Positions 9,647 through 53,086 of a DNA stretch of 64,000 nt are shown here, one piece after another (position 1 is the stretch's first letter; each line of letters opens with the position of its first letter). The DNA comes from Planctomycetota bacterium (GTDB lineage: Bacteria; Planctomycetota; UBA8108; UBA1146; JAJFFE01). The position numbers and the translations under genes were made by a program. A model generated the notes under the pieces. That model was not told where the DNA came from. It saw only the letters and a program-made list of their open reading frames with translations, and did not search any database. The DNA is taken from contig JBJXGE010000070.1 of NCBI GenBank assembly GCA_046154185.1, positions 129,935 to 193,934 of the forward strand. Reading direction: 5' to 3'.

Positions 9647-11731
9647 TCACGGGCACGGCGAGTAACTCGCGCAATCGAGCGCGTCGTCCGTCAGGTCGGG
9701 GCCGCAGGTCGATGGCCCCGGGAACGGAATCACGGCGCCGAGGAACAGCCCGGACAACATGTGAATCGGGTCGCCGATGTTGAAGTTGCCGTCGTCGTTG
9801 GCGTCGACGGCATCGAGACACGTGGCGAGCGGCCCCCCGCTGAAGAGTGAACTCAACGCGTAAATCACGTCGCCGATGTTGAAGCCACCGTCGGCATTCG
9901 CGTCGCCACGCTGGAAGAACGGCTCGGAGCCGGGACCGAAGAACCCGCTGAGGTACGCGGCGGCGAGCGCGTTTTTATCGCCGCCGTAGCCGCCGAATTC
10001 CCACGATTGACACAGGACAGGCGCACTCGGAATGTCAAGGAACACGCCGGTCGTGTAGCTCCCAAGGCCGCCGTTCAACCACACCGATCCGGCGGGCTGC
10101 AGCGGATCCGGTAGCAAACGATCGGTGTAATCGTTGCCGAACTGGTCTTGCGAGTAAGACGCGGCATAGCCGAGCAAATGCAGGGGACCGTGGTTCGCGC
10201 CGATCATGGCGACGAACGAATCGTCGCCGTCGCCGACGCCGAAGTCCGCGACGCCATCGACCGCGGCAAATGGCGTGGCCGGGTCGAAGCCCCAGATGTC
10301 GGCGCCTTCGCAGTAAATCGGGGTTCCCGCATCGGCCAACGCCGCGAGGAGAGCGCCGTCGCCGAACGACAGAACGTAATTATCAGGATAAGTACCAGCG
10401 CACACGAACACCGCGCGCGGCTGCGACGCGAACACCGACGGATCGAGGCGACTGACGACGGCGACGGGCTCTGCCAGATTCGCGAAGGCGCCGGCGAGCG
10501 TCGCCGCGCTTGCAATCAAACCATCGCCGCTCTCCAAATCGCACACGACCAACGCATCGGCGACCGCCACGCGGCAGCGCGCTTCATCGAGTTTGCCCGC
10601 GGGGGTGTGCGACTCGACCGTGAACTCGTGCACGCCACTCAGCGGCGGTGACACATAACTGGTTTCTAATCCCGGCATCACGGCGACCAGCTCGCCGTCG
10701 ATTCGCACTTGAATCAGCGCGAGCATCTGGCCGGGACCAAGCGCCCAGTTGAGCTGCACGACGCCCGTCGTCGGATCGATCGGCGTCACCGCGCAACTCA
10801 AGTTGCGAATCGGTCGCGGCGCCGGAAAGGCCGAGTTGCGCAACTCGACGCGACCGAGCCAGCCGAGTTCCGGCGAATCGTTCTGGAACATCAAAGTCCA
10901 GTTGCCGCCGACCGGCAGGCCCGTGAGTTCGAAGAGCGAGCCCGGGCCGCTCGGCTGCAAATCCCGGCCGCTACGCATGAAAGGCGGTGAGTTCGGCTCG
11001 CCGATCGCCGAGTAGCTCGACCAAAGTTGATTCTCGCCGGATGCGCCGCCGTGATCGTGAAGTCGAGTCGTGTCGCCGTTGGGCGCAATCAAGTCGATCG
11101 CCAAGCCGCTGAGACTGAGTTGCACCAACTCGATCTCCACTTGCAGGTCGGACACCGGCGCGGTGCTGGGCAGGAACACGTTGACGGCCGTGAGCCCAGG
11201 CGGGAGTAACGAAATCGTACTGAGCATCCCGCTCACGTCGTGGGGCGCGACGGCGCAAAGTAGGATCTTGCAGTTCTGTGACGTACCGCTCGTTTGCTTC
11301 GTGTGATCGGTTCCCACGAGCTTGTAGATGATGTACTCGCCATTTCCGAGTTTGCCCTTCTTGTCGCCGACGGCGGCGATGCAAATCTTGAACGTGACGT
11401 TCCCTTCGCTGTTATCCGCGCGCGAGAAGCAGAGGAACTTCTTCGTGCCGACAGTGGCGATGGACTTGGTCCAGCCGTCGGGAATTCCGCCGGCGCCGTT
11501 GCCGGTCACGTTCGCATCCGGGATGTTCTCGTCGATTTCGACGTAGACTCGGCTGATCGGATTATTCGAATCGACGCCGGTGACCTCGACGTCGAAGTAA
11601 GTCGAGTCGGCGGGCGCGCCGGCGGGCCGCGTCCCCGCTTTGATCTTCGGCGCCTTGTAGGCGAACACCTGCAGCGGAATCAAGAGCGCGAACACGAGCG
11701 CCGCGCGTCCGAGGCGAGATTGACAAAACAT
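9647..11731 (-). CDS. Secreted protein with proprotein-convertase P-domain-like region and C-terminal Cys-rich dockerin-like module
   Basis: Start at ATG 11731, preceded by AAAGGAG with a 5-nt spacer. Signal peptide MFCQSRLGRAALVFALLIPLQVFA. P-domain-like segment IDLIAPNGDTTRLHDHGG...NWTLMFQNDSPELGWLGRVELR. The last 90 aa are FQRGDANADGGFNIGD...DANDDGNFNIGD...PFPGPSTCGPD...CP. Confidence 0.7.
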   Translation of the reverse strand: MFCQSRLGRAALVFALLIPLQVFAYKAPKIKAGTRPAGAPADSTYFDVEVTGVDSNNPISRVYVEIDENIPDANVTGNGAGGIPDGWTKSIATVGTKKFLCFSRADNSEGNVTFKICIAAVGDKKGKLGNGEYIIYKLVGTDHTKQTSGTSQNCKILLCAVAPHDVSGMLSTISLLPPGLTAVNVFLPSTAPVSDLQVEIELVQLSLSGLAIDLIAPNGDTTRLHDHGGASGENQLWSSYSAIGEPNSPPFMRSGRDLQPSGPGSLFELTGLPVGGNWTLMFQNDSPELGWLGRVELRNSAFPAPRPIRNLSCAVTPIDPTTGVVQLNWALGPGQMLALIQVRIDGELVAVMPGLETSYVSPPLSGVHEFTVESHTPAGKLDEARCRVAVADALVVCDLESGDGLIASAATLAGAFANLAEPVAVVSRLDPSVFASQPRAVFVCAGTYPDNYVLSFGDGALLAALADAGTPIYCEGADIWGFDPATPFAAVDGVADFGVGDGDDSFVAMIGANHGPLHLLGYAASYSQDQFGNDYTDRLLPDPLQPAGSVWLNGGLGSYTTGVFLDIPSAPVLCQSWEFGGYGGDKNALAAAYLSGFFGPGSEPFFQRGDANADGGFNIGDVIYALSSLFSGGPLATCLDAVDANDDGNFNIGDPIHMLSGLFLGAVIPFPGPSTCGPDLTDDALDCASYSPCP

Positions 11732-12028
11732 GACCGCTCCTTTCGAGTGAGCACGCATGAGAGTCCGTGTATCCACAACTAAAGCGGTATTGCGCGATGT
11801 GGGCGAAAACGGACAACTCAGTCGGGCGCGAACAAGCTCGTCAGTGGGGCTTGGAGGTCCGACGCGGTCGAACTATGCGCCAACGCGGGCCGTCGCGACT
11901 CTCGCGAGCAACAACTGCGCGAAGCGCGACCTCGTGTCCGCGGTGTTAACCGCGTACATCCCGCCGAGAGTATCGAAGGGAGCGGCGCGACGGTGGCTGT
12001 TTCGAGTCGCCGGCACGAGCGCGTCCGG

Positions 12029-14713: not shown

Positions 14714-14938
14714 CTAGCGCAAGTTCGCGAGCACGGCGCGCACCGTTGCGCTCCAACCGTGCGGATCGGCGGCGCGCTCCAATTCGCGGCTCACGAGTTG
14801 ACGACGGAAGAGTTCATCGGCGTCAGCGGTCGACAGATCCCACCACTCGGAAGGCGGGATCAAGCGACCCTCGCGATCGCGTTCGCGAAAGGCAGAGACG
14901 CTGGCCTCGATCAGTGCGTCGCGCTCGCGCTGGTTCAC
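14714..14938 (-). CDS. Putative small protein translationally coupled to the ECF sigma factor (candidate anti-sigma factor)
   Basis: A GTG start at 14938 overlaps the TGA stop of the sigma factor gene (GTGA). The 74-aa product has no recognisable domain. Confidence 0.3.
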   Translation of the reverse strand: MNQRERDALIEASVSAFRERDREGRLIPPSEWWDLSTADADELFRRQLVSRELERAADPHGWSATVRAVLANLR

Positions 14939-15501
14939 GAGTAATTCTCCTCGAGCCGAATTCCGCGTCGCTCCAAGCACTTCGCCACCTGGCCCCGAGC
15001 ACGGACGACGTTCTGTAGAAACGTGTTCTTCGTCATCGCGAGCGACTCCGCAAGCAGCCGGTCTGCCCTCCGGCCGCCACCGCGAAGCCGAGCATGGAGT
15101 GCTTGGCGCGGCTTTCCTACGAGACGACCCAAACACTCAGCGATCGCTCGCCGAAGGTCGGGATCGCGATCGGGCACGGGATCGAACGGAGTCTCAGGAA
15201 GATCGTCCGGCGGAAGCAGATGCTCCCGCCGGTAACGCCGCGCCTCGGCGCGCGCGAGATTGCGCGCGACTCCGAGCGCGAACTTGAGCGACGCGTCTGC
15301 CCCGCTGAGCGTTCGTTCCGGGTCCCGTGCCAGCACCCACATGCGAAGAAAAGTCTCTTGCAGTACGGCTTCGACGTCCACTGCCCTGGCGTATCGACGG
15401 AGGCTCAGTCGGACGGCGAGCTCCACGCTCGCCATCCACTCGCCAAAGACTTCCGAACCACCGGCTCGCGCAGTGGCGAAGAGAACGTCGGCTCCGCTCA
15501 C
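14935..15501 (-). CDS. RNA polymerase ECF (sigma-70 family, group 4) sigma factor
   Basis: Region 2 (ETFLRMWVLARD) and region 4 helix-turn-helix (LHARLRGGGRRADRLLAESLAMTKNTFLQNVVRARGQVAKCL) are both present. Confidence 0.8.
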   Translation of the reverse strand: MSGADVLFATARAGGSEVFGEWMASVELAVRLSLRRYARAVDVEAVLQETFLRMWVLARDPERTLSGADASLKFALGVARNLARAEARRYRREHLLPPDDLPETPFDPVPDRDPDLRRAIAECLGRLVGKPRQALHARLRGGGRRADRLLAESLAMTKNTFLQNVVRARGQVAKCLERRGIRLEENYS

Positions 15502-15505
15502 TTCG

Positions 15506-17926
15506 TTACCTAGCTCCGATCAAAGGCGTTTTGAACTGAACGCGATAACCGATCCCGTTCGCGGAACTCAGCGGATCCGGCCGCTTCGCCGTCCACTCGA
15601 CGCGGAATGAAATCGACGAAGCCCAGAAAGCATCGTCTGCGACTCGCAGCGCCATTCGAACGATGAGCCCCTGCCGATGCGGGCCGACCCGAGAGGACTC
15701 TGACCTGTTTACCTCGGCATTACCCGAGTCTCCCAGTGCACCGATCAACCGAACGACACCATCCGGCAGCAAGAAGCCGTCGTGCGGCACCGTGAACTCG
15801 ATGATCACAGTGTCGTTGGCGAAGCGGACGGCGTTCGACGCGAAGATTTCCAACACCGGCAACTGGGGTGTGCCGCGGACTCGAATCCCTCCCGCGCTGC
15901 CGGTCGGCGGCGGTGAGGCCGGAGTCGCGCCTCCGAAAGCGGACCCCGCACTGCCATACCTTCTTGGCGCAGAGCCTCTAAACCGCGCAGCACCAAGCAA
16001 ACTGTGCAAGACGCCCACCCCCGCACCAGCAGGCGAGACGCCGTACGGCATCTCTACCGCGATACGCTCGCGACGTCGCGGCGCACGCGGATCCACCGCC
16101 GCTTCCTCTGCAATCGCTATCAAGCTCGTGCGCCGACTCACGACGCGATGCCGGAGTCCGAGCGCTTCGACAGCTTGATCCAGTCCGAGATCGGGTCCAC
16201 CCTCCGGCGCCAAACCGTCAGCGAGCGGGCGATGCGCGCTACGTTCGGGCTTCACGACGCCCGCTTCGAGATCCGCGATTCGCTCGCGCCCGTAGTACGC
16301 ACCGAGCGGGAGCGCGGTCGCGCCTGCGAACGCAGAATCGATGTTCACGCGCCAAGCCCATGTGCCTTTCTTCCCCGCGAGCTGACCCGTGACGTCCAGC
16401 GTGCCTCCAGCGGGACGAAGCTCGACTGCCATCACGAGTGGTTTCTCGGCGAAGACATCTCTCGGCAGCGCCGGTGCGCTCGCCACCACCGCCGAGCCGC
16501 CGATCATCAGTTCGGTCAACACGGGCCGCACGGTCGCGGCGCAGAGTCGCCGCGAGACTCTCGCCGCCGTGCGCTCATCGTTCGCAAAGAACTCGTGGCC
16601 GCGCCCGGCCCGCGCGACCCCGCTCGTCAGCGATCGATTGGGTGCTGCGCCGATTCCGACGGCATGAACGCGCACGCCGGCCGGGAGCTCAGCGGCGAGT
16701 TTGTGGACGATCTCTCTTTCAAAACCGATATAGCCGTCGGTCACCAACACGATCTGACGCTGCGTCTCCGGACGAAGCGAGACCATGGCCTCGGTAACCG
16801 CCGCCATCATCTCCGTGGCGCCGCCCGCTCGCAACGCGGCGAGTTTGGCGAGGCACTTCCTCACGGCGCGGGGTGTCGCATTCGAGAGTCGCGCGGACAA
16901 CGGCTCGACCGTGCTCGCGAACGCGAAAACCTCGAATCGATCGCCTGCGGCGAGACTCGCGAGTAAGTCTGCGACGACGCGCTTCGCCGCTTCGAGCGGC
17001 GGCCCACTCATCGAGCCGCTCGCGTCGATCAGCACGGTGACGTCGCGGTGGTAAACCACGGCCGGATCGGCCGCGGGCGTCACCGTGACGAGCGCGTAGC
17101 GACCGTCGTCGCCTGTTAGTCCGCGACCTTCGACGATTCGAACGCCAACATCGCGCGCGACGGCGGACCATTGGATGATGAGATCGCGATCGAGTCGCGC
17201 GTGTTCAGCGAGATGGACGTGCGTGACGTTGGCGCCGGCCACACACTTGATCTCGTGGCTCGGCGATGTGATGGCGGCTGTCGAGCCTGTCGCATCCGCG
17301 ATCTCGTCCGCTATCTCCACATCTAGCGCGACGCGAGTGGGAATTCCGCCGTCGTCCCCACGATCTACGTCGAGCTTCGCCGCGTCCGTTACGTGTCCCG
17401 GTTCCCCCTCGTAGCGAACGCCGACGACTGTCGGGAAACGATATTCCCAGATCGGCGCGCTCGCCTCGCCGCCGAGCAGGAACGCGAGAGCGTGCAGCAC
17501 CTCGATCTCGATCCGCGCGTTCGTGTGGGCGGGAAGATTGCCGAGCCGCTGCTCGAACGTGTCGGCGCGGTTCTGCTCGAGGAGCCCTGCCGTGCGCCCT
17601 TCGAAGAGCGCCTTTTTGTAATCGGCCTCCGCGATATCGCGCTTCTCGATCTCGCCGCGAATCACGCGCTCGCCCATGCGAATCTGGTAGCCGAGGACGG
17701 CGCCGTCAGCGGGAAGCGGCACCGTGTAGATGACTTCGAGCGGCTCGTCATGAGGATTCTCAAATTCCTGGATCAACGTCGTCAGCGCGAGCCCGCCCTC
17801 GGCGCGCGCGTGCACCTGTGCGGAGCGAAGCGGGTACACCCGCCCATCCACGGCAACGAGCGCCGGCGACGCCGGCGTTTTTGGTTGAGGCTCAACGATT
17901 TGCGGACACATAGGACTCTCCTTCAA
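15506..17926 (-). CDS. VIT (vault inter-alpha-trypsin) + von Willebrand factor type A domain protein
   Basis: N-terminal VIT region. The vWA MIDAS motif is DVTVLIDASGSMSG. 806 aa, ending 4 nt upstream of the sigma factor gene start. Confidence 0.8.
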   Translation of the reverse strand: MKESPMCPQIVEPQPKTPASPALVAVDGRVYPLRSAQVHARAEGGLALTTLIQEFENPHDEPLEVIYTVPLPADGAVLGYQIRMGERVIRGEIEKRDIAEADYKKALFEGRTAGLLEQNRADTFEQRLGNLPAHTNARIEIEVLHALAFLLGGEASAPIWEYRFPTVVGVRYEGEPGHVTDAAKLDVDRGDDGGIPTRVALDVEIADEIADATGSTAAITSPSHEIKCVAGANVTHVHLAEHARLDRDLIIQWSAVARDVGVRIVEGRGLTGDDGRYALVTVTPAADPAVVYHRDVTVLIDASGSMSGPPLEAAKRVVADLLASLAAGDRFEVFAFASTVEPLSARLSNATPRAVRKCLAKLAALRAGGATEMMAAVTEAMVSLRPETQRQIVLVTDGYIGFEREIVHKLAAELPAGVRVHAVGIGAAPNRSLTSGVARAGRGHEFFANDERTAARVSRRLCAATVRPVLTELMIGGSAVVASAPALPRDVFAEKPLVMAVELRPAGGTLDVTGQLAGKKGTWAWRVNIDSAFAGATALPLGAYYGRERIADLEAGVVKPERSAHRPLADGLAPEGGPDLGLDQAVEALGLRHRVVSRRTSLIAIAEEAAVDPRAPRRRERIAVEMPYGVSPAGAGVGVLHSLLGAARFRGSAPRRYGSAGSAFGGATPASPPPTGSAGGIRVRGTPQLPVLEIFASNAVRFANDTVIIEFTVPHDGFLLPDGVVRLIGALGDSGNAEVNRSESSRVGPHRQGLIVRMALRVADDAFWASSISFRVEWTAKRPDPLSSANGIGYRVQFKTPLIGAR

Positions 17927-18229
17927 GGGTCGCTCGACGCGCGCCCAGACATCCGAAATGGTAGCCAGGCGGCGCAGCGCTCCATCTCCCTATGTCGCAG
18001 AGGTCGATTTGGTGACAAGAATTTTTTGGCACGAACGCCGGGCGCGGCTATCGAAACGAACGGAGAGTGCAGCGGTGAAGGCCGATTGACTTCGAGTTCG
18101 GCCGGCGGTGAAGGCCGATCGCCTTCGTTTTCGGATTCCTTGTGACATGCGGCTGCTCGCACGAGGCACGTTTCCCTAGGCGAGCCATCCGCCTGAAGAC
18201 TTGGGGATCGAAAACAGGAAGGAGCTTCG

Positions 18230-18988
18230 ATGTTTCCGTGGAAGTTTGTGATTGCCGCCTTGCTGCTTGTGGGATCGTTGAGTTCAAATTCGCACGCCCA
18301 GTACCAGCTCGTGATCAGCGATGTGACCGCGGCGCCGGGAGATACCATCGCGGTGACCATCACGCTCATCGGCGCCGCGGGGGTGCAGGGTCTCTCGATG
18401 GGTGTCTGCCACGATCCGGTCGCGCTCGAGCTTATCGGCCTTGACCCGGGTCCGCTGTTTGATTCGATCTTCGACCCCGACCCGCTGAACTTCGTCGAAT
18501 ACTCGAATGGTTTCACGATCGCCTACGCGTCCATTATTGGTCCGGCGCTGCCAGCGGGGCCGATCTTGGTTGCTACCGTGAGTTACACGGTTCTAGCGCC
18601 GCTGACTTCCGACATTTGCGCGTGCCCGATTGGATCGCCGCCCGTCCAAACCTACGTGGTGGTCGGAGGCTCGTCTCTAGCTGTCACGACGAGTTGTGGG
18701 ACCGTGGCCGCAGGATCGACGATGTTCATGCGCGGCGACATTTCCGGTGACGACGCTTTCGATCTGGGGGACATCATCGCCATGTTGGCCGTGATTTTCC
18801 AAGGCGCGCCCGCACCGGGTTGCGCGGACGCCGCGGACACCAACGATGACGGCGTTTTCAACCTCGCGGATCCGATCTACGGAATCAACTACCTGTACGT
18901 CGGTGGACCACCGCCGCCCGGCGGAGTCGGATGCGCTTCGGACGGCAGCCTAGACCCGCTCGATTGCGATCTGAGCGGTTGTCTATAA
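18230..18988 (+). CDS. Secreted protein with cohesin-like N-terminal beta-sandwich and C-terminal Cys-rich dockerin-like module
   Basis: Signal peptide MFPWKFVIAALLLVGSLSSNSHA. YQLVISDVTAAPGDTIAVTITLIGAAGVQGLSMGVCHDPVALELIGLDPGP resembles the cohesin pattern. The C-terminal 88 aa are MFMRGDISGDDAFDLGD...DTNDDGVFNLADPIYGINYLY...C...CL. Confidence 0.65.
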   Translation: MFPWKFVIAALLLVGSLSSNSHAQYQLVISDVTAAPGDTIAVTITLIGAAGVQGLSMGVCHDPVALELIGLDPGPLFDSIFDPDPLNFVEYSNGFTIAYASIIGPALPAGPILVATVSYTVLAPLTSDICACPIGSPPVQTYVVVGGSSLAVTTSCGTVAAGSTMFMRGDISGDDAFDLGDIIAMLAVIFQGAPAPGCADAADTNDDGVFNLADPIYGINYLYVGGPPPPGGVGCASDGSLDPLDCDLSGCL

Positions 18989-19456
18989 CGGCGCAGCTGC
19001 GTTCGCACTGAAGTGCCGCAGAAGTGCTGCAGCTGGACGCAAGTCCTCATTGCGGCAGGGTCGGAAGTGGTTGCGGTTTCGTGGAGTCGATGCCCGCGTC
19101 GGCGTTCCACGATTTCGCGACCAGTTCCGGTTGCCGTAGGCCGGCAGCGCTCCCGGTATCGACAACTGTCTGTTAGCGCACTTACTCCGCATGAGCGGCC
19201 GACGGATCCTACTACCGGCACTTGCCTCGCAACGCACATTTCCCTGCTTTGAACTCACAGTTTCTCGATCCTCTCGGCTGCTCCGTCAACACTTCACCAT
19301 CGCCGACGCTTGACGCCGATAGGGGCTTTGTCGACACTGCTTACCGGTGTGAGTCTAGACTCGAATCAAGTGCGTTGCGCTAGATCCGGTTCTTGTGCAG
19401 CGGCAGACTGGGCGCGGTTCTTCGTCGCATACTTGAACGTTCTAGAAGGATGTCGC

Positions 19457-22249
19457 ATGTCACGCATCTTGAATATCGATGCACCGACTTTTCTCCGCTC
19501 CCCACGGCTGCTGATTCGACTGGCTGCGGTGCTCTCGGTGATCGCAGCGATTTGCGCGGATCTGCCGGCCGTTCACGCCGGTGGCTGCGTCTTTCGTCTC
19601 ACCAGTGATCTATCAGGTGGCACGACCGCGCTCTCGACCGTGAAGCTCGACAACTCGTGCGGCGAAATTGAAGGTTGGTCATTCGGAGTGTGCTTCGGCG
19701 ATGCGCCGATCAATATTCAGAGTGTTGAACCGACGCCGCTCGTGGCGACCGTTGCCGGTGGCGGGCCACCTGCGCTTCAGTCGATTGAGATTCATGCGGA
19801 GGGATTTACTGTCACGACAGTCATTTCGCTGGCTGGGCCGGTGACCGGTATGACTTTGCCGCCGGGCATTGACTATCCACTCTATGTCGCGACATTCTCA
19901 AGTGCCGTCGACGCGCTCGCGGAGATTTCGATCTGTGGCGAACTCGGTACACCGCCAGTGCCGATTTTGGTGACGACTGAAAGCGGCGACGAAGCGGCCG
20001 CTGTTGGCGCTGCGCAGCACCTCGCGTTCACGCATTTCCCTGCGATGAACGCACCGTTCCAGCGCGGAGATTGCAACTCGGATGCCGCGATGCAGGTTTC
20101 GGACGCCGTGTTTTTGCTTGAGTGGCTGTTTCAGTCCGGCGCGAATCCCGAGTGTCGCGTGGCGTGCGACGTGAATGATGACAACGGTGCCAACATCAGC
20201 GATGTCGTATTCTTGCTCAATTACTTGTTCGCGAGCGGACCGACACCACCCGCTCCATTTCCCGCTTGCGGCGTTGATCCGACTCCGGGAAGTCTACAAT
20301 GCGAGACGCCGCGATGTCTGAGCGCGCCAACAAGTCTGAGTTACTCGTCGCCTGCGGCGCAGTACTTCGTTGGCACCGCGATACCACCAAACATTCCAAC
20401 GGTGGCAGGCGCACCGGCCGAGATTTTTCTAGTAACGCCGCCGCTACCTGCCGGAATCTCGCTCACACCGGATAGCGGAGTCATTATCGGCGTACCACTC
20501 ACAGCCGCGACGACCAACCACACTGTTCTCGCTGCCAATCTCGCCGGCGGAGTTACAACGACGATTAGTGTGGTTGTCATTGATTCGACGGTGCCGGCCT
20601 TGGGCTCAAATCAGTTTTATCTGGGTCCGACACTCAACGTTCGACGCTACGGACACACAGCGACAGCGCTCGCAGACGGGCGCGTGTTGGTGGTTGGCGG
20701 CACGGATGAGAGATTCTTCACGAGCCTCGACACACTCGAAATTTTCGATCAAGCCGTGGCAACGTCACCGCCGCCGCCGTCATTAGCCGGCGCTTTTATC
20801 GACACCGACTTTTTGGGTAATCCGTTGACTCTTGATACCGGCGGTCGGGTCGGACATACCGCAACCTTGCTCGCGGATGGGTCAGTCTTGATCGCCGGAG
20901 GGACGAACGATTTTCTCGTCGCCGACGCATGTAGCGACAGTCTTGTCTTTGACGCAATAACGCGAACTTTCGCGTCCGACCTGCAGCCGCTGAATACCAT
21001 GATCTTCCCGAGATTCCGCCATACTGCGAACCGCCTACCCGATGGGCGGGTCTTGTTGGCGGGTGGCCAAAGGGCAGTGATCGAGACGATCATTGATCCA
21101 AACTTCCCTCCGGGCAGCCCGTTTTTCCAGTTCGATATCACAGTATTCCCGTCGACCCGTACGGTCGAGTGTTTCGATCCGGCGACGCGCTCCTTCGAGC
21201 TTGCGATCGATCTGCTGGGACAGCCAACCGAAATGCAATCGACGCGCGGACGCTTCGGCCATTCCGTTGTCGCTATGGCAGGACTCGACGGTGAAATCGA
21301 CACGATCGACGATGTTCTTCTTTTTGCCGGTGGCACTCAGACGCTTTCGGCGATTTTCGCGCCGCAACTAAAATTTCCGGGACAACCCGAATCTGTGGCG
21401 TTGCCCGGCGTCGAATATTACGACCTCGCTTCCGGCGTGCTCGCGTTAGCGCCGGGGGGTGTCGTCATCCCGCGTGTGCGCGCCGCGCTGCTCAATCTCG
21501 GGTCGCATGCACCTAGCACGTGGGACGGAGTAGCAGGGGTTAACAATGTCGCACTCGTTACCGGCGGCGACTCTGATGTCGGAATTTGCCTGGCAGCAGT
21601 GCCGTCGTCGCAGATCGTATCCTGCACATTCACCGGTTTCGGTCCTGCGAGCGGAATTCAGTTTTTCGTTTTCTCACCGATCTCTGCACAAGCGGGCCGA
21701 GAGTCGAGCATCGCAACATCGCTTCAGTGCGCGCACGGTCGAGCCTTCGCCGACTTTGTCGTGCTGCCAAATCGCCGCGTGTACTCCGGCGCCGTCTTCG
21801 ATGGCAATTGGGTATTCACGGCCGGCGGCGTCCATACTGCGCTGACGCCCGGAGGCTGTATCGAGATTGCAGAGGGACTTTGCTTGAGCGAATTGCGAGG
21901 CGCGAGTTTCTTCGATCCATTCTTCAACGCGACTCTGGCGGCACCGTGGGACTTGGCCGCGACGAGTAGCCCGCAAAACCCAACTGGGGTCGTCGGGAGC
22001 TGGCTCAACGGCGACGCAGAAATCCCGGATGCATCGCTTATCGGGTATGGCGATGGATCCGCCCCCGCGCTGTTGAACGTGCCGCGCGTATATCACACGA
22101 TGACGGTCATCCCCGGCGAGGACAACGTGCTCGGCACGATTGATGATCGTGTCGTTGTAATCGGCGGCGGAGATACAGCGCTCGGAATCATCGGCGGCGC
22201 ACCCGTGCAAGCGAGTTGCGAAATCTACGTTCCACCCGCGGGACCTTGA
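19457..22249 (+). CDS. Multidomain secreted protein: cohesin-like region, internal Cys-rich dockerin-like module, He_PIG-type Ig domain and Kelch/galactose-oxidase-type repeats
   Basis: ATG at 19457 with GAAGGA upstream. Signal/TM segment LLIRLAAVLSVIAAICADLPAVHA. The dockerin-like module lies at nt 20057..20320. The Ig-like segment is LPAGISLTPDSGVIIGVPLTA. Kelch-type repeats include GHTATALADGRVLVVGG, GHTATLLADGSVLIAGG and RHTANRLPDGRVLLAGG. Confidence 0.7.
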   Translation: MSRILNIDAPTFLRSPRLLIRLAAVLSVIAAICADLPAVHAGGCVFRLTSDLSGGTTALSTVKLDNSCGEIEGWSFGVCFGDAPINIQSVEPTPLVATVAGGGPPALQSIEIHAEGFTVTTVISLAGPVTGMTLPPGIDYPLYVATFSSAVDALAEISICGELGTPPVPILVTTESGDEAAAVGAAQHLAFTHFPAMNAPFQRGDCNSDAAMQVSDAVFLLEWLFQSGANPECRVACDVNDDNGANISDVVFLLNYLFASGPTPPAPFPACGVDPTPGSLQCETPRCLSAPTSLSYSSPAAQYFVGTAIPPNIPTVAGAPAEIFLVTPPLPAGISLTPDSGVIIGVPLTAATTNHTVLAANLAGGVTTTISVVVIDSTVPALGSNQFYLGPTLNVRRYGHTATALADGRVLVVGGTDERFFTSLDTLEIFDQAVATSPPPPSLAGAFIDTDFLGNPLTLDTGGRVGHTATLLADGSVLIAGGTNDFLVADACSDSLVFDAITRTFASDLQPLNTMIFPRFRHTANRLPDGRVLLAGGQRAVIETIIDPNFPPGSPFFQFDITVFPSTRTVECFDPATRSFELAIDLLGQPTEMQSTRGRFGHSVVAMAGLDGEIDTIDDVLLFAGGTQTLSAIFAPQLKFPGQPESVALPGVEYYDLASGVLALAPGGVVIPRVRAALLNLGSHAPSTWDGVAGVNNVALVTGGDSDVGICLAAVPSSQIVSCTFTGFGPASGIQFFVFSPISAQAGRESSIATSLQCAHGRAFADFVVLPNRRVYSGAVFDGNWVFTAGGVHTALTPGGCIEIAEGLCLSELRGASFFDPFFNATLAAPWDLAATSSPQNPTGVVGSWLNGDAEIPDASLIGYGDGSAPALLNVPRVYHTMTVIPGEDNVLGTIDDRVVVIGGGDTALGIIGGAPVQASCEIYVPPAGP

Positions 22250-39900: not shown

Positions 39901-40153
39901 AGAGCGGCATGCTCTCCAACGGATGAGATTGCATGCGAATACCGATCACGGTTTCGAGCTTCATCGAAAACTCTTAGGCAGAGACGGCTACAAAATCACC
40001 CACGTCTAGCACGACGCGGGCGGGAATCGAGTATTGACGTGCCCGAGCGCCGTCAGTCGACTAGACTATCGCGCCTTCGAGCGGTGCTCGACCGAGTCGA
40101 GGGTTTTTGAATTCCTACGGGCGGTGGTTTTCGCGTTGGGAAAGGGAGGCGGA

Positions 40154-42754
40154 ATGCTGAGACTCAGCCGAATGTTGTTGTTGGCCGGTGTCTGTTGCAC
40201 GATTTGCGCATTCACGAGTCCGGCGCACGCGCAAGGGGCCGGCACCACGGATGGCCGCGATATCATCGTCGGCGATCTGTATGACGTCGCTTCGTGGGGC
40301 GTTTCCGGCACGATCGCAGCGTTCTCGGTCGGCACGATCTCCTGCAACATCGGCGATGTCGCGGTGCCCTGGGTCGCATCGACGAACGAACATCCGGTCA
40401 TCGGGCAGAACATGTTTCGCCTCAAAGACGGCGTCATGGAACAAATCGGGCAAAGCTGGCTCAAGCATGGGTTCACGGCGTTGACGGGCACGACGTGCTC
40501 GGCCGGTTTGGGTGGCTGCACGGGGCCCGGCGGCTCGCAACTCAGTCCGGGCTGCTCCGATCCTTACTCCGCGGGTCTCAACGGTTCGCAAAGCAATCTC
40601 GGACCGCGCTCGCCGGTCAATGCCGCGACCGGATATTTCCCATACCCGTTCAGCGCGCCGTCGCCCGAGCCGGTGATCGGTCGGCGCTTGCAAGTCATCG
40701 TCGACGACCTGCTCCCGGCGCTCAATCCGGGAGCCGAGTACTTCGTGACGGGCCGCTACGTATCATCCGCGGATTCGGAGGACGAAAACGACAACAACAA
40801 TGTCTCGTACCGTCGCATCAACGTCGCGGGCACTTCGCCGTACACGATCTCGCTCATAGATTCGACTCAGCGGCAACTGACGGCGATCGACGCATGGCAG
40901 GATTCGCATGCGGATGTCGAAATCGACGTCATCGACATCAGCGGCGACGGACGCATCGTCCTCGGCACGCGCGTCATCGACCTCGGCGGCAATCAGTATC
41001 AATACGAGTATGCGATCTACAACATGACGTCGGATGCCTCGGTCGGGTCGTTCACCGTGCAAACGCCCCCGGGCACGTCGTTTTTGAGCACGGGCTTTCA
41101 CGCGGTGTTCTCACACAGCGGCGAGCCCTACTCGAACACTCCGTGGACGATCACGCCGGGCTCGACGAGCATCGTCTGGTCGACGCAGACGTTTTCCTCG
41201 AATCCGAATGCGAACGCGCTGCGGTGGGACAACATGTACAACTTCCGTTTCGTCACCGATCAGCCGCCGGTAGTGGGCAACGCCACGATTGGACTCTTCA
41301 AGTCGCCGGGCCAATTCACCGTTCAAACGCTCGTGCCGGATAACGGCACCATTTCGAACTTCTCGTGCGCCGTGAATGCGCAGGGCGTCCAACTCGACTG
41401 GCTCAACGGCACCGCGTTCACGACGATCGAGCTCCGGCGCAATGGCTCTAGCATCGCGACGTTGGCCGGCACCGCGCAGAGCTATCTCGATACGAGCGCC
41501 ACAGCGGGATTCAACCAGTACGAGGTCATCGGTTTCGTCGGCGCAGTGGCCGCGCCCGCCGCGGTCTGTGCGCTCGACGTACCCCAACCGCTCGTCGTGG
41601 CGTTCACGGGCGCGATTCCAAAACTCATCAGTGATCAAGGCGAAACGCTTGCGGTGACGATTACGCAGTTCAACGGCGGTGTGTACGCGTCCGGATCCGC
41701 GCAACTTCACGTCGATAGCGGCGCGGGTTTCGTGTCGACGCCGCTCATCGAGTCGCCGCCGCTCGCGTTCACCGTGAACTTGCCGGCGCTCGCGTGCGGC
41801 ACATCGATCGCGTTTTATGTGAGTGCGAACTCCACGCTCGGTGAGACCTTCACGGCTCCGGACGGGGCGCCGACGGTTGTGCACGAGGCGGTCGTGGCGA
41901 GCGCAATTGTGACGGAGTTCGCGGACACCATGGAGACCGACACCGGTTGGATCGTTGGCACGCCGAGTGATACCGCAACGACGTCGGGCATTTGGGTGCG
42001 CGAAGACCCGAATGGTTCCGCCGCTCAACCGGAAGATGATTCATCGGACGACGGCGCATTCGCATGGTTCACGGGCCAAGGCGCGCCCGGTGCGGCGCTC
42101 GGCGCGGCGGATGTCGATGGCGGCAGCACGACGCTGACATCGCCGGCGATCAATCTCGCGGGATCCGATAGTGCAGTGATCAGTTACAGGCGGTGGTTCT
42201 CGAACGACACCGGCGCGGCGCCTGGGCTCGACATCTTTGAAGTCGAAGTCTCGGCCGACGGGACCAACTGGGTGAACGTCGAGACGGTTGGACCGACCGG
42301 CGCCGAAGCGAGCGGTGATTGGTACTCGCACGAGTTTCGCGTCGCCGATTTCGTGACGCCGAGCGCTGCCGTGCGAGTTCGATTCCGCGCGAGCGACACG
42401 GGCGCGGCATCGATCGTCGAAGCCGCGATCGACTTCTTTGAGGTCAGAGACTTCGTGTGCGGCCCGCTCGGTGAGTCGTTCATGCGCGGCGACTGCAACG
42501 GCAGCGGGCTTCTCGACATCTCGGACGCGTCGTTCTTGCTCTCGCAACTGTTCGTGCCCGGTAGTCCGAGCGGCCCGTGCCAAGACGCTTGCGACGTGAA
42601 CGACGATAGCCTCGTCAACATCGCGGATGCCGTGTACACGTTGATCTACCTGTTCCAATTCGGCGCGAACCCGCTTCCGCCGTTCCCGGACTGCGCGATC
42701 GACCCGACGTTCGATGGCGTGAGCTGCGACAGCGTCCCGCCGAACTGTCCGTAA
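40154..42754 (+). CDS. Large secreted protein with C-terminal Cys-rich dockerin-like module
   Basis: Signal peptide MLRLSRMLLLAGVCCTICAFTSPAHA. The C-terminal 92 aa (nt 42476..42751) are FMRGDCNGSGLLDISD...CDVNDDSLVNIAD...PFPDCAIDPTFDGVSCD...CP. Confidence 0.7.
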   Translation: MLRLSRMLLLAGVCCTICAFTSPAHAQGAGTTDGRDIIVGDLYDVASWGVSGTIAAFSVGTISCNIGDVAVPWVASTNEHPVIGQNMFRLKDGVMEQIGQSWLKHGFTALTGTTCSAGLGGCTGPGGSQLSPGCSDPYSAGLNGSQSNLGPRSPVNAATGYFPYPFSAPSPEPVIGRRLQVIVDDLLPALNPGAEYFVTGRYVSSADSEDENDNNNVSYRRINVAGTSPYTISLIDSTQRQLTAIDAWQDSHADVEIDVIDISGDGRIVLGTRVIDLGGNQYQYEYAIYNMTSDASVGSFTVQTPPGTSFLSTGFHAVFSHSGEPYSNTPWTITPGSTSIVWSTQTFSSNPNANALRWDNMYNFRFVTDQPPVVGNATIGLFKSPGQFTVQTLVPDNGTISNFSCAVNAQGVQLDWLNGTAFTTIELRRNGSSIATLAGTAQSYLDTSATAGFNQYEVIGFVGAVAAPAAVCALDVPQPLVVAFTGAIPKLISDQGETLAVTITQFNGGVYASGSAQLHVDSGAGFVSTPLIESPPLAFTVNLPALACGTSIAFYVSANSTLGETFTAPDGAPTVVHEAVVASAIVTEFADTMETDTGWIVGTPSDTATTSGIWVREDPNGSAAQPEDDSSDDGAFAWFTGQGAPGAALGAADVDGGSTTLTSPAINLAGSDSAVISYRRWFSNDTGAAPGLDIFEVEVSADGTNWVNVETVGPTGAEASGDWYSHEFRVADFVTPSAAVRVRFRASDTGAASIVEAAIDFFEVRDFVCGPLGESFMRGDCNGSGLLDISDASFLLSQLFVPGSPSGPCQDACDVNDDSLVNIADAVYTLIYLFQFGANPLPPFPDCAIDPTFDGVSCDSVPPNCP

Positions 42755-52330: not shown

Positions 52331-53086
52331 ATGTCGCATCGAGTTCTGTTCGTTCTGGGTTTGTTCGTGGCGATCTGCTTCGCGACCCCGAGTTCTGCTC
52401 AAACGACGCCTTATCAACTCAACCCGACCGGCACCGACTACACGTACGGCTGCTACCCGCCGTGCTTATGCCCCATCTTCGTCGGCGAATTCATGACAGG
52501 CGGCTTCGAGTTGACGTTCACGAGCTTCGACGGGCTCTACAACAACTACGACATCACCGGCATCGATTGGGCAACGACCGGGAGCCAGCTCGTCGGCTCC
52601 GGCACCTATAGAGTCTCGGTCGGCGCGCCGGAAGTGATGCACGAGATCACGCTCGATCTCGCCATTAATGGCGAGCCCCATCTGTTAGTCAGTGGACTCC
52701 TCCCGACTGACGACATCTTCCCGACGATTCAAATCGGCGCCGCCGAGAACGGCTACTTCTGCTTCGATTACACCGTGCTGATCGACGCCACACCGGTGTT
52801 CGCGCCAGCGCCGGATTTCGTCCGTGGCGACTGTAACGTCGACAACTCGACGAATATCGCCGACGCAATCTTCGCGCTCGACACGTTGTTCATTCCCGGC
52901 TCGACCGGCGGCCCTTGCGCGAAAGCCTGCGACGCGAACGACGACGGCAGCTTCAACCTCGCTGACGTGATCACGCTCCTGAGTCATTTGTTTTTGTCGG
53001 GGCCGATCCCGCCGCCGTTTCCCGGTTGCGGCGCGGATCCCACAATGGATAGCTTGAGCTGCGACGCGTTTGGGTTCTGTCCATAG
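52331..53086 (+). CDS. Small secreted protein with C-terminal Cys-rich dockerin-like module
   Basis: Signal peptide MSHRVLFVLGLFVAICFATPSSAQ. The C-terminal 90 aa (nt 52814..53083) are FVRGDCNVDNSTNIAD...CDANDDGSFNLAD...PFPGCGADPTMDSLSCD...CP. Confidence 0.65.
   Translation: MSHRVLFVLGLFVAICFATPSSAQTTPYQLNPTGTDYTYGCYPPCLCPIFVGEFMTGGFELTFTSFDGLYNNYDITGIDWATTGSQLVGSGTYRVSVGAPEVMHEITLDLAINGEPHLLVSGLLPTDDIFPTIQIGAAENGYFCFDYTVLIDATPVFAPAPDFVRGDCNVDNSTNIADAIFALDTLFIPGSTGGPCAKACDANDDGSFNLADVITLLSHLFLSGPIPPPFPGCGADPTMDSLSCDAFGFCP

Follow-up and report, generated by a model that had tools for sequence, protein, structure and literature searches.

The 64,000-nucleotide stretch analysed here (the window) is part of a 322,724-nt contig from a Planctomycetota bacterium, and carries at 18230..18988 (+) an ATG-initiated open reading frame (ORF) for a 252-residue protein in which a cohesin and a dockerin module are joined in a single chain. 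The translated sequence is as quoted in an initial annotation of this DNA, which had described a secreted protein at this position, and is identical to NCBI MFN0059890.1, an entry already named "cohesin domain-containing". From the N-terminus, the protein is composed of a signal peptide, a cohesin (residues ~25-162), a linker of 5-7 residues, a dockerin (residues ~165-230), and a Cys-rich tail (residues 231-252), and its product is a non-catalytic two-module chain that is predicted to be secreted. The G+C content of the window is 58-67% throughout, with no compositional break at 18230..18988.

The N-terminus of the protein (residues 1-23, 18230..18298, +), with the sequence MFPWKFVIAALLLVGSLSSNSHA followed by QY, reads as a putative Sec signal peptide, with a Lys at position 5, a hydrophobic core of 12 residues and, by eye, an S-H-A/Q site. 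An AlphaFold2 model of the full protein, built with an alignment of 30 homologous sequences, places residues 4-16 of the signal peptide in a helix, and a hydrophobic N-terminus ending in A-Q is common to the homologues in this family alignment.

The cohesin module (residues ~25-162, 18302..18715, +) is a type-I-like β-sandwich, delimited by Pfam, by a family profile against PDB sequences, and by Foldseek, that carries the family motif G-[WL]-S-x-G-V-C-H-D-P and four cysteines (C60, C129, C131, and C156). The initial annotation had assigned this β-rich segment to the cohesins and had proposed a profile search and a structure prediction as checks, both of which bear the assignment out. Pfam Cohesin (PF00963) matches residues 26-82 with E = 7.7e-6 and 26.6 bits, where its gathering cut-off is 24.1, phmmer against PDB sequences returns the cohesins 3kcp_A (E = 6.2e-5), 1aoh_A (E = 1.2e-3), and 1anu_A (E = 9.7e-3), and positions 26-148 of a family profile built from 30 full-length homologues align with the ScaB cohesin dyad 3l8q_A (E = 2.9e-7). 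The AlphaFold2 model has a mean predicted local distance difference test score (pLDDT) of 90.2 and a predicted template modelling score (pTM) of 0.72, with residues 26-161 forming a β-rich domain. Compared with the PDB using Foldseek, this model gives 94 matches at E <= 0.001, and all 50 of the 50 matches listed are cohesins. The top match is the cohesin of ScaC from Ruminococcus flavefaciens (5lxv_A, E = 1.8e-10), and the type I cohesins 2vn5, 6kgc, 1aoh, and 1ohz superpose on the model with template modelling (TM) scores of 0.75-0.81 and root-mean-square deviations of 2.3-3.0 Å over ~150 columns. As judged from the predicted structure, the cohesin fold of the 252-residue protein is confirmed as genuine.

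The dockerin module (residues ~165-230, 18722..18919, +), delimited by phmmer, the family profile, and the model, contains two Ca2+-binding loops, each followed by a helix, and a linker Cys (C198). A dockerin-like module at the C-terminus had also been proposed initially and is recovered here, as phmmer aligns residues 167-221 with the PDB dockerins 2y3n_B (E = 1.3e-4) and 5lxv_B (E = 1.1e-3), and the family profile reaches 2y3n_B with an E-value of 7.5e-8 and both 2mte_A and 1daq_A with 1.1e-4. Both loops are canonical. Loop 1 (D169-I-S-G-D-D-A-F-D-L-G-D180) has its ligand positions at D169/S171/D173/D180 and loop 2 (D203-T-N-D-D-G-V-F-N-L-A-D214) at D203/N205/D207/D214, and, across 155 non-redundant related modules, D or N stands at each Ca-ligand site (positions 1, 3, 5, and 12 of the two loops) in 88-100% of cases. 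In the model, helices span residues 179-191 and 213-224, with a short helix (199-202) between them. The identification of the C-terminal module as a Ca2+-loop dockerin, which rests on its sequence, the residues of its Ca2+ loops, and this three-helix secondary structure, holds. Chance or artefact as the source of the cohesin and dockerin matches is ruled out by the Pfam, PDB, and fold evidence.

A Pro-rich turn and a Cys-rich C-terminal tail follow the dockerin (residues 231-252, 18920..18985, +), as delimited by the family alignment and the model, and contribute three further cysteines (C235, C246, and C251). Among the 30 homologues, C198, C235, and C251 are invariant and C246 is present in at least 90%, and within the 155 related modules the linker Cys (C198 in this protein) is found in 154 and the tail cysteines are highly conserved. 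Short β bridges form at residues 165-167 and 235-237 of the model. Disulfide stapling of the dockerin is suggested because of this conserved cysteine pattern, and the tail is probably a disulfide-stapled clasp on the dockerin, with a putative pairing of its cysteines. The 252-residue protein lacks both members of an additional, optional Cys pair, one in 'RGD-C' of loop 1 and the other in 'A-C-D' immediately ahead of loop 2, which occurs complete in 25 of the 155 modules, with one member in 4, and with neither in 126. This co-occurrence (Fisher p = 1.7e-24, with shared ancestry not corrected for) probably marks an extra disulfide that joins both Ca2+ loops.

The adjacent gene at 19457..22249 (+; MFN0059891.1, named only "hypothetical protein" by NCBI) encodes a cohesin-dockerin-Ig-like-Kelch protein. 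A segment similar to the cohesin had been noted initially at its N-terminus, and the resemblance exceeds that observation, as the entire 252-residue cassette, dockerin and Cys tail included, has a paralogue in the first ~290 residues (32% identity over 235 residues, BLASTP E = 1e-23). A signal peptide or N-terminal helix (residues 1-42, 19457..19582, +), read from the sequence as RSPRLLIRLAAVLSVIAAICADLPAVHA followed by GG and helical at residues 16-34 in a model, precedes a cohesin (residues ~44-192, 19586..20032, +; delimited by BLASTP to the 252-residue protein and by Foldseek) and a dockerin with its Cys tail (residues ~200-290, 20054..20326, +; delimited by BLASTP and a family dockerin hidden Markov model, HMM), which in this protein is internal and not C-terminal. 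The remainder (20381..22246, +) contains, by Pfam, a weak Ig-like He_PIG match (residues 309-374, E = 3.5e-3, below cut-off) and then a Kelch or galactose-oxidase-like β-propeller region (Kelch_4, E = 2.8e-12; Kelch_6, E = 2.9e-9). The propeller also has weak matches to the radical copper oxidase GlxA and to the glyoxal oxidase N-terminus, and might belong to a galactose-oxidase-like enzyme.

The Pfam Cohesin profile alone does not detect the cohesin of this neighbouring protein, which emerges from BLASTP and structure prediction. A model of its N-terminal 298 residues (pLDDT 85.6, pTM 0.59) has 5lxv_A as its best Foldseek match (E = 1.5e-6), and ranks 1-16 are all cohesins, with TM scores of up to 0.74, followed from rank 17 down by a few other β-sandwiches (Als adhesins, a CBM2 cellulose-binding domain, a CLIPPER adhesin domain, and an integrin). 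The dockerin of the neighbour matches Pfam Dockerin_1 weakly (E = 0.089, 13.4 bits against a cut-off of 22.9), and the family dockerin HMM, of which this sequence was part, with an E-value of 3.5e-36. The initial annotation had named as its refuting outcome that no cohesin fold would be predicted or that these N-terminal regions would resolve to another Ig-like family; this fails because the structural matches are cohesins, and another Ig-like family is ruled out by all 50 matches listed for the 252-residue protein and by the ranks of the neighbour, where non-cohesins appear only from rank 17. A promoter and terminator scan of 17900..19600 found sites no more numerous than in shuffled sequences and is uninformative on co-transcription of the two genes.

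Scanned in six frames with the family HMMs, the window contains in total exactly two cohesins, in these adjacent genes, and five dockerin-plus-tail modules. The three further dockerins, none of which was used in building the family HMM, are detected with E-values of 1e-29 to 1e-31 and lie at the C-termini of secreted proteins. One (9650..9916, -; E = 1.8e-29) terminates a 703-residue protein (~9647..11776, -) with a weak P-domain match (Pfam P_proprotein, E = 0.003), the second (42479..42748, +; E = 5.3e-30, Dockerin_1 E = 0.0031) an 867-residue protein (40034..42754, +) with a weak F5/8 type C match (E = 0.026), and the third (52817..53083, +; E = 4.4e-31, Dockerin_1 E = 0.022) the 251-residue protein MFN0059917.1 (52277..53086, +; 'hypothetical' at NCBI), whose N-terminal Cys-containing domain has no Pfam match. 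The 703- and 867-residue proteins are almost without recognizable domains, and the P-domain of the former echoes components of the 'planctosome' (PMC6461901) discussed below. A 400-residue relative, P0005, seems to share a related N-terminal region with MFN0059917.1.

Directly upstream of 18230..18988, on the opposite strand, lies a gene for an 805-residue VIT and vWA domain protein (15506..17926, -), followed by a 187-residue ORF (14935..15501, -) that by eye resembles an extracytoplasmic function-type sigma factor and has no Pfam match at E <= 1e-3. The flanking and other large genes of the window encode VIT-vWA, DUF3592, DUF4943, PDZ, M1 peptidase, CarboxypepD_reg repeat, FG-GAP/ASPIC, S41 peptidase, and aspartyl protease proteins. 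Among the window proteins scanned, no glycoside hydrolase, LTD domain, or further cohesin was detected, and Pfam recognizes no glycoside hydrolase domain in the five dockerin proteins of the window.

By its sequences, the family to which the 252-residue protein belongs is a large paralogous expansion in uncultured Planctomycetota that is built as one to three cohesins followed by a dockerin, Coh(1-3)-Doc. Word-indexed homologue searches yielded few matches (6, 10, and 4), and an exhaustive protein search was used instead; at E <= 1e-3 it returned 23,110 proteins, of which 3,351 also pass E <= 1e-10, and the dockerin accounts for most of the matches. Homologues that align end to end number in the dozens and have lengths of 255-285 residues (for example P0008, with 49% identity), and a further class of ~360-370 residues carries an extra N-terminal domain. 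A genome scan with one genome per species gave 376 confirmed relatives, of which the best 80 loci (817 kb, retrieved through the dockerin by a subset alignment) were analysed. These 80 loci derive almost entirely from Planctomycetota metagenome-assembled genomes (MAGs), often with several loci per genome. A few family dockerin matches fall in MAGs labelled Bacillota, Woesearchaeota, and Parcubacteria (L009, L022, and L076), which may reflect binning contamination or real spread.

A dockerin accompanies the cohesin in cis in 37 of the 38 cohesin ORFs of the 80 loci, the one exception being a frameshift-split gene, and the architectures comprise Coh-Doc (23, including one half of the frameshift-split gene), Coh2-Doc (11), Coh3-Doc (1), and Doc-Coh-Doc (2). 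Because the 80 loci had been fetched through the dockerin, a dockerin-independent check was added, in which a degenerate DNA motif encoding the cohesin signature GWSxG[VI]CHDP was used to search metagenome contigs. All 16 complete cohesin ORFs retrieved in this way end in a dockerin, the 2 of 18 without one are cut by the contig end, and 7 of the 23 motif loci are unrelated chance matches. A cohesin-only candidate of 152 residues (P0162, on a 1.5-kb contig) appears to be a fragment created by a frameshift and was not counted, and no true cohesin-only ORF of this family was found among the 38 and 18 cohesin ORFs of the two sets. Between the last cohesin and the dockerin lies a linker with a median length of 7 residues, which is at most 12 residues long in 46 of 53 cases; six members carry insertions of 100-450 residues. 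Of 164 ORFs, 144 have the dockerin within 10 residues of the stop codon and 17 have it at an N-terminal or internal position. Cohesin-borne dockerins appear intermixed with those of cargo proteins and form no separate sequence subtype: in 38% of cases, such a dockerin has another cohesin-borne dockerin as its nearest neighbour, compared with an expectation of 32% and values of up to 58% in label permutations, with clustering across genomes serving as a crude proxy for specificity. Tandem Coh(n)-Doc arrays occur on Planctomycetota MAG contigs as four consecutive genes (L054:4336-10306) and as two (L014:3946-6741) and, like the adjacent pair of the window, indicate local duplication as a route of family expansion.

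The proteins that carry the same dockerin with no cohesin are diverse. The domains on 20 sampled dockerin-only proteins from the related loci include penicillin amidase, a trypsin-like peptidase with PPC, proprotein-convertase P-domains, a C-type lectin, FG-GAP propellers, β-helix, arylsulfotransferase, HYR, MopE, and CarboxypepD_reg; nothing is recognizable in 7 of the 20, and none of the 20 carries a glycoside hydrolase. A component of a cellulosome is ruled out as the identity of the 252-residue protein, because no glycoside hydrolase cargo was found in the window or among the sampled related dockerin proteins. Some relatives consist of chains of dockerins. P0156 (391 residues) comprises a signal peptide and four dockerin-plus-tail modules and nothing else, P0007 (874 residues) scores 149 bits against Dockerin_1, and P0009 (1187 residues, 343 bits) combines twelve Pfam Dockerin_1 repeats (E = 1e-104) with a PG_binding_1 peptidoglycan-binding domain. 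Such poly-dockerin relatives look like inverted scaffoldins and would be natural hubs for Coh-Doc proteins.

Our interpretation of the 252-residue protein is that of a connector, in which a type-I-like cohesin is joined by a linker of ~5-7 residues to a Ca2+-binding dockerin; we give this interpretation an even chance of being correct, with daisy-chaining as its less certain part. After Sec export, the dockerin would fold around two Ca2+ ions and be stapled by disulfides, while the cohesin face would capture a same-family dockerin on another protein. This partner could be cargo, such as the three dockerin-only proteins of the window, or a Coh-Doc paralogue such as the neighbouring Coh-Doc-Ig-Kelch protein, and the protein's own dockerin would plug into a further cohesin. 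The assembly would be non-cellulosomal, in that the linked proteins carry peptidase, lectin, propeller, P-domain, and unknown domains and not glycoside hydrolases. Head-to-tail chains or branched assemblies are possible because every cohesin found lies on a dockerin-bearing chain and a single dockerin class is apparent, and the self-polymerizing or daisy-chained scaffolds envisaged in the initial annotation are plausible and compatible with the family data. Binding, Ca2+ dependence, disulfides, and chain formation are properties that we infer. A more far-reaching model, which we regard as improbable, is an anchor-less, self-assembling extracellular network that arises from a single cohesin-dockerin specificity. 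Here Coh(1-3)-Doc proteins would polymerize head-to-tail and branch, poly-dockerin chains (4-12 modules, one with a peptidoglycan-binding domain) would serve as inverted scaffoldins or cell-wall hubs, and free cohesins would be capped by peptidases, lectins, and propellers that bear a dockerin tag, giving a protein matrix stabilized by Ca2+ and disulfides and not a cellulosome.

Several observations weigh against the connector interpretation. The PF00963 match is confined to positions 2-56 of 139, about the first 40% of the profile, and Pfam Dockerin_1 (PF00404) has no match to the dockerin of the 252-residue protein even at E <= 1; the same profile matches 19 of the 30 full-length homologues at E <= 0.01 (best 6.9e-8). 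No cell anchor was found within the window. The lack of cohesin-only proteins rests on family-specific probes and ~54 ORFs, so that a divergent anchoring cohesin elsewhere would escape. Finally, the short linker could mean a rigid or intramolecular Coh-Doc unit, and the pTM of 0.72 hints at a defined inter-domain packing. The same architecture also has alternative explanations. In a classical monovalent adaptor, the cohesin would bind cargo and the protein's own dockerin, of a different specificity, would bind a cohesin-only anchoring scaffoldin elsewhere in the genome, with no self-association. This is the mode of known Coh+Doc adaptors such as ScaC (PMC11557425; PMC5429695), whose cohesin 5lxv_A is the best Foldseek match, and it fits the excess of dockerins over cohesins in the window (5 to 2). 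However, no cohesin-only ORF occurs among the 38 and 18 cohesin ORFs, as probed with the family HMM, which divergent cohesins would escape, and the window covers only 64 kb of a contig no shorter than 322 kb; nor are the cohesin-borne dockerins a distinct sequence subtype, and we consider such an adaptor possible but rather unlikely.

Alternatively, the dockerin could be fixed against its own cohesin, so that the pair forms one structural or ligand-binding module and not a connector. The short, conserved linker (median 7 residues, 46 of 53 at most 12) and the obligate cis arrangement would agree with such a unit, as would a pTM that is above expectation if only the 140-residue cohesin were confidently placed in the 252-residue chain, a weak inference. 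Set against this are the six family members with 100-450 residues inserted between cohesin and dockerin, the Coh2-Doc and Coh3-Doc proteins, which have more cohesins than dockerins, the frequent occurrence of the same dockerin on proteins without any cohesin, and the pTM of only 0.59 for the neighbour, which together make a rigid unit very unlikely in our estimation. Equally hard to credit is a general Ca2+-dependent module for cell-surface retention or export, in which case the ligand of the cohesin-like domain would be of another kind, for example a glycan or a different protein. A sorting tag of this kind would be expected on every cohesin protein, as is observed, and would account for its position at most 10 residues from the stop codon in 144 of 164 ORFs of very diverse proteins and for the conserved extreme C-terminus (...C-P), but 17 of the 164 ORFs, the neighbour gene included, carry the module N-terminally or internally, chains of 4-12 tandem dockerins make little sense for a tag, and its strict association with a bona fide cohesin fold favours a cognate pair.

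If the binding logic of the connector interpretation is true, abundant uncultured marine and freshwater Planctomycetota would use a cohesin-dockerin code that has no relation to cellulose degradation to organize secreted proteins, dozens of them in each genome. This code would differ from that of cellulosomes in that every cohesin has its own dockerin and the dockerin is disulfide-stapled. It would also extend the 'planctosome' idea, with the two-domain 252-residue protein as a concrete subject for self-assembly, and could be a source of oxidation-stable, orthogonal cohesin-dockerin pairs for use in protein engineering. Taken by itself, the protein is ordinary: its cohesin is already annotated at NCBI and Coh+Doc adaptors are textbook knowledge. 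The initial annotation had missed both this existing annotation and the precedent of adaptor scaffoldins for a cohesin and a dockerin in one chain, as well as the dockerin of the neighbour. What is distinctive and modestly interesting lies in the regularities of the family: a dockerin that is obligate in cis and usually follows the cohesin after a short linker, its stapling by cysteines, the occurrence of one dockerin class only, and the existence of poly-dockerin relatives.

Adaptor scaffoldins, such as the monovalent ScaC of Ruminococcus (PMC11557425; PMC5429695), as a rule combine a cohesin with a dockerin in one chain. ScaC of the R. flavefaciens cellulosome is the closest analogue of the 252-residue protein, as both are small, secreted, non-catalytic, and composed of exactly one cohesin and one dockerin, and the ScaC cohesin 5lxv_A is the best structural match. 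The role of ScaC is to connect dockerin-bearing proteins to another cohesin (PMC11557425; PMC5429695), and by analogy the 252-residue protein may act likewise. The two share only 14% sequence identity, however, and the 252-residue protein comes from a Gram-negative-type Planctomycetota MAG and has a dockerin with conserved cysteines and a Cys tail. Its family also differs from the ScaC system in that no glycoside hydrolase was found among the dockerin proteins examined, no separate dockerin specificity class is visible, and no cohesin-only anchoring scaffoldin was found. Another chain that contains both modules, with a solved structure, is the Coh9-X-DocII portion of CipA from Acetivibrio (Clostridium) thermocellum (3kcp_A / 4fl4); 3kcp_A is the best PDB sequence match of the 252-residue protein and aligns with both of its modules. 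In contrast to the 252-residue protein, CipA has an X module between cohesin and dockerin, a type II dockerin with a specificity unlike that of its type I cohesin, and belongs to a nine-cohesin scaffoldin for cellulose degradation.

Within the Planctomycetes, kelp-associated species have dockerin expansions that arose by gene duplication (PMC5264255), and non-cellulosomal cohesin and dockerin modules underlie the 'planctosome' hypothesis put forward for freshwater Planctomycetes (Nemodlikiaceae) by Andrei et al. (2019; PMC6461901). The proposed planctosome is composed of a 2,210-residue LTD-anchored protein with a terminal cohesin, a Doc-HYR-Coh adaptor, and dockerin-tagged peptidases (PMC6461901). 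It resembles the 252-residue family in being non-cellulosomal, in its occurrence in Planctomycetes, in the presence of an adaptor with both cohesin and dockerin, and in having P-domains, HYR, and peptidases as cargo or associated domains, which in our data are represented by the weak P-domain of the window and by the P-domain, HYR, and trypsin-like peptidase proteins of the related loci. Unlike the Doc-HYR-Coh order of the planctosome adaptor, the 252-residue protein has the order Coh-Doc with a linker of ~7 residues. The planctosome also has an LTD anchor, whereas none occurs among the window proteins scanned, and the cohesin of the 252-residue family was never found without a dockerin.

More widely, non-cellulosomal cohesins and dockerins were reportedly described outside the cellulolytic clostridia by Peer et al. 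in 2009. The cohesin of Archaeoglobus fulgidus (2xdh) and the cohesin-like domains of Clostridium perfringens (2jh2 and 2vo8) share the cohesin fold without a cellulosome, and 2xdh and 2jh2 are among the Foldseek matches of the modelled window cohesins. These proteins belong to other lineages and are combined with other partner domains, whereas the family of the 252-residue protein is a paralogous expansion with a fixed Coh(n)-Doc layout.

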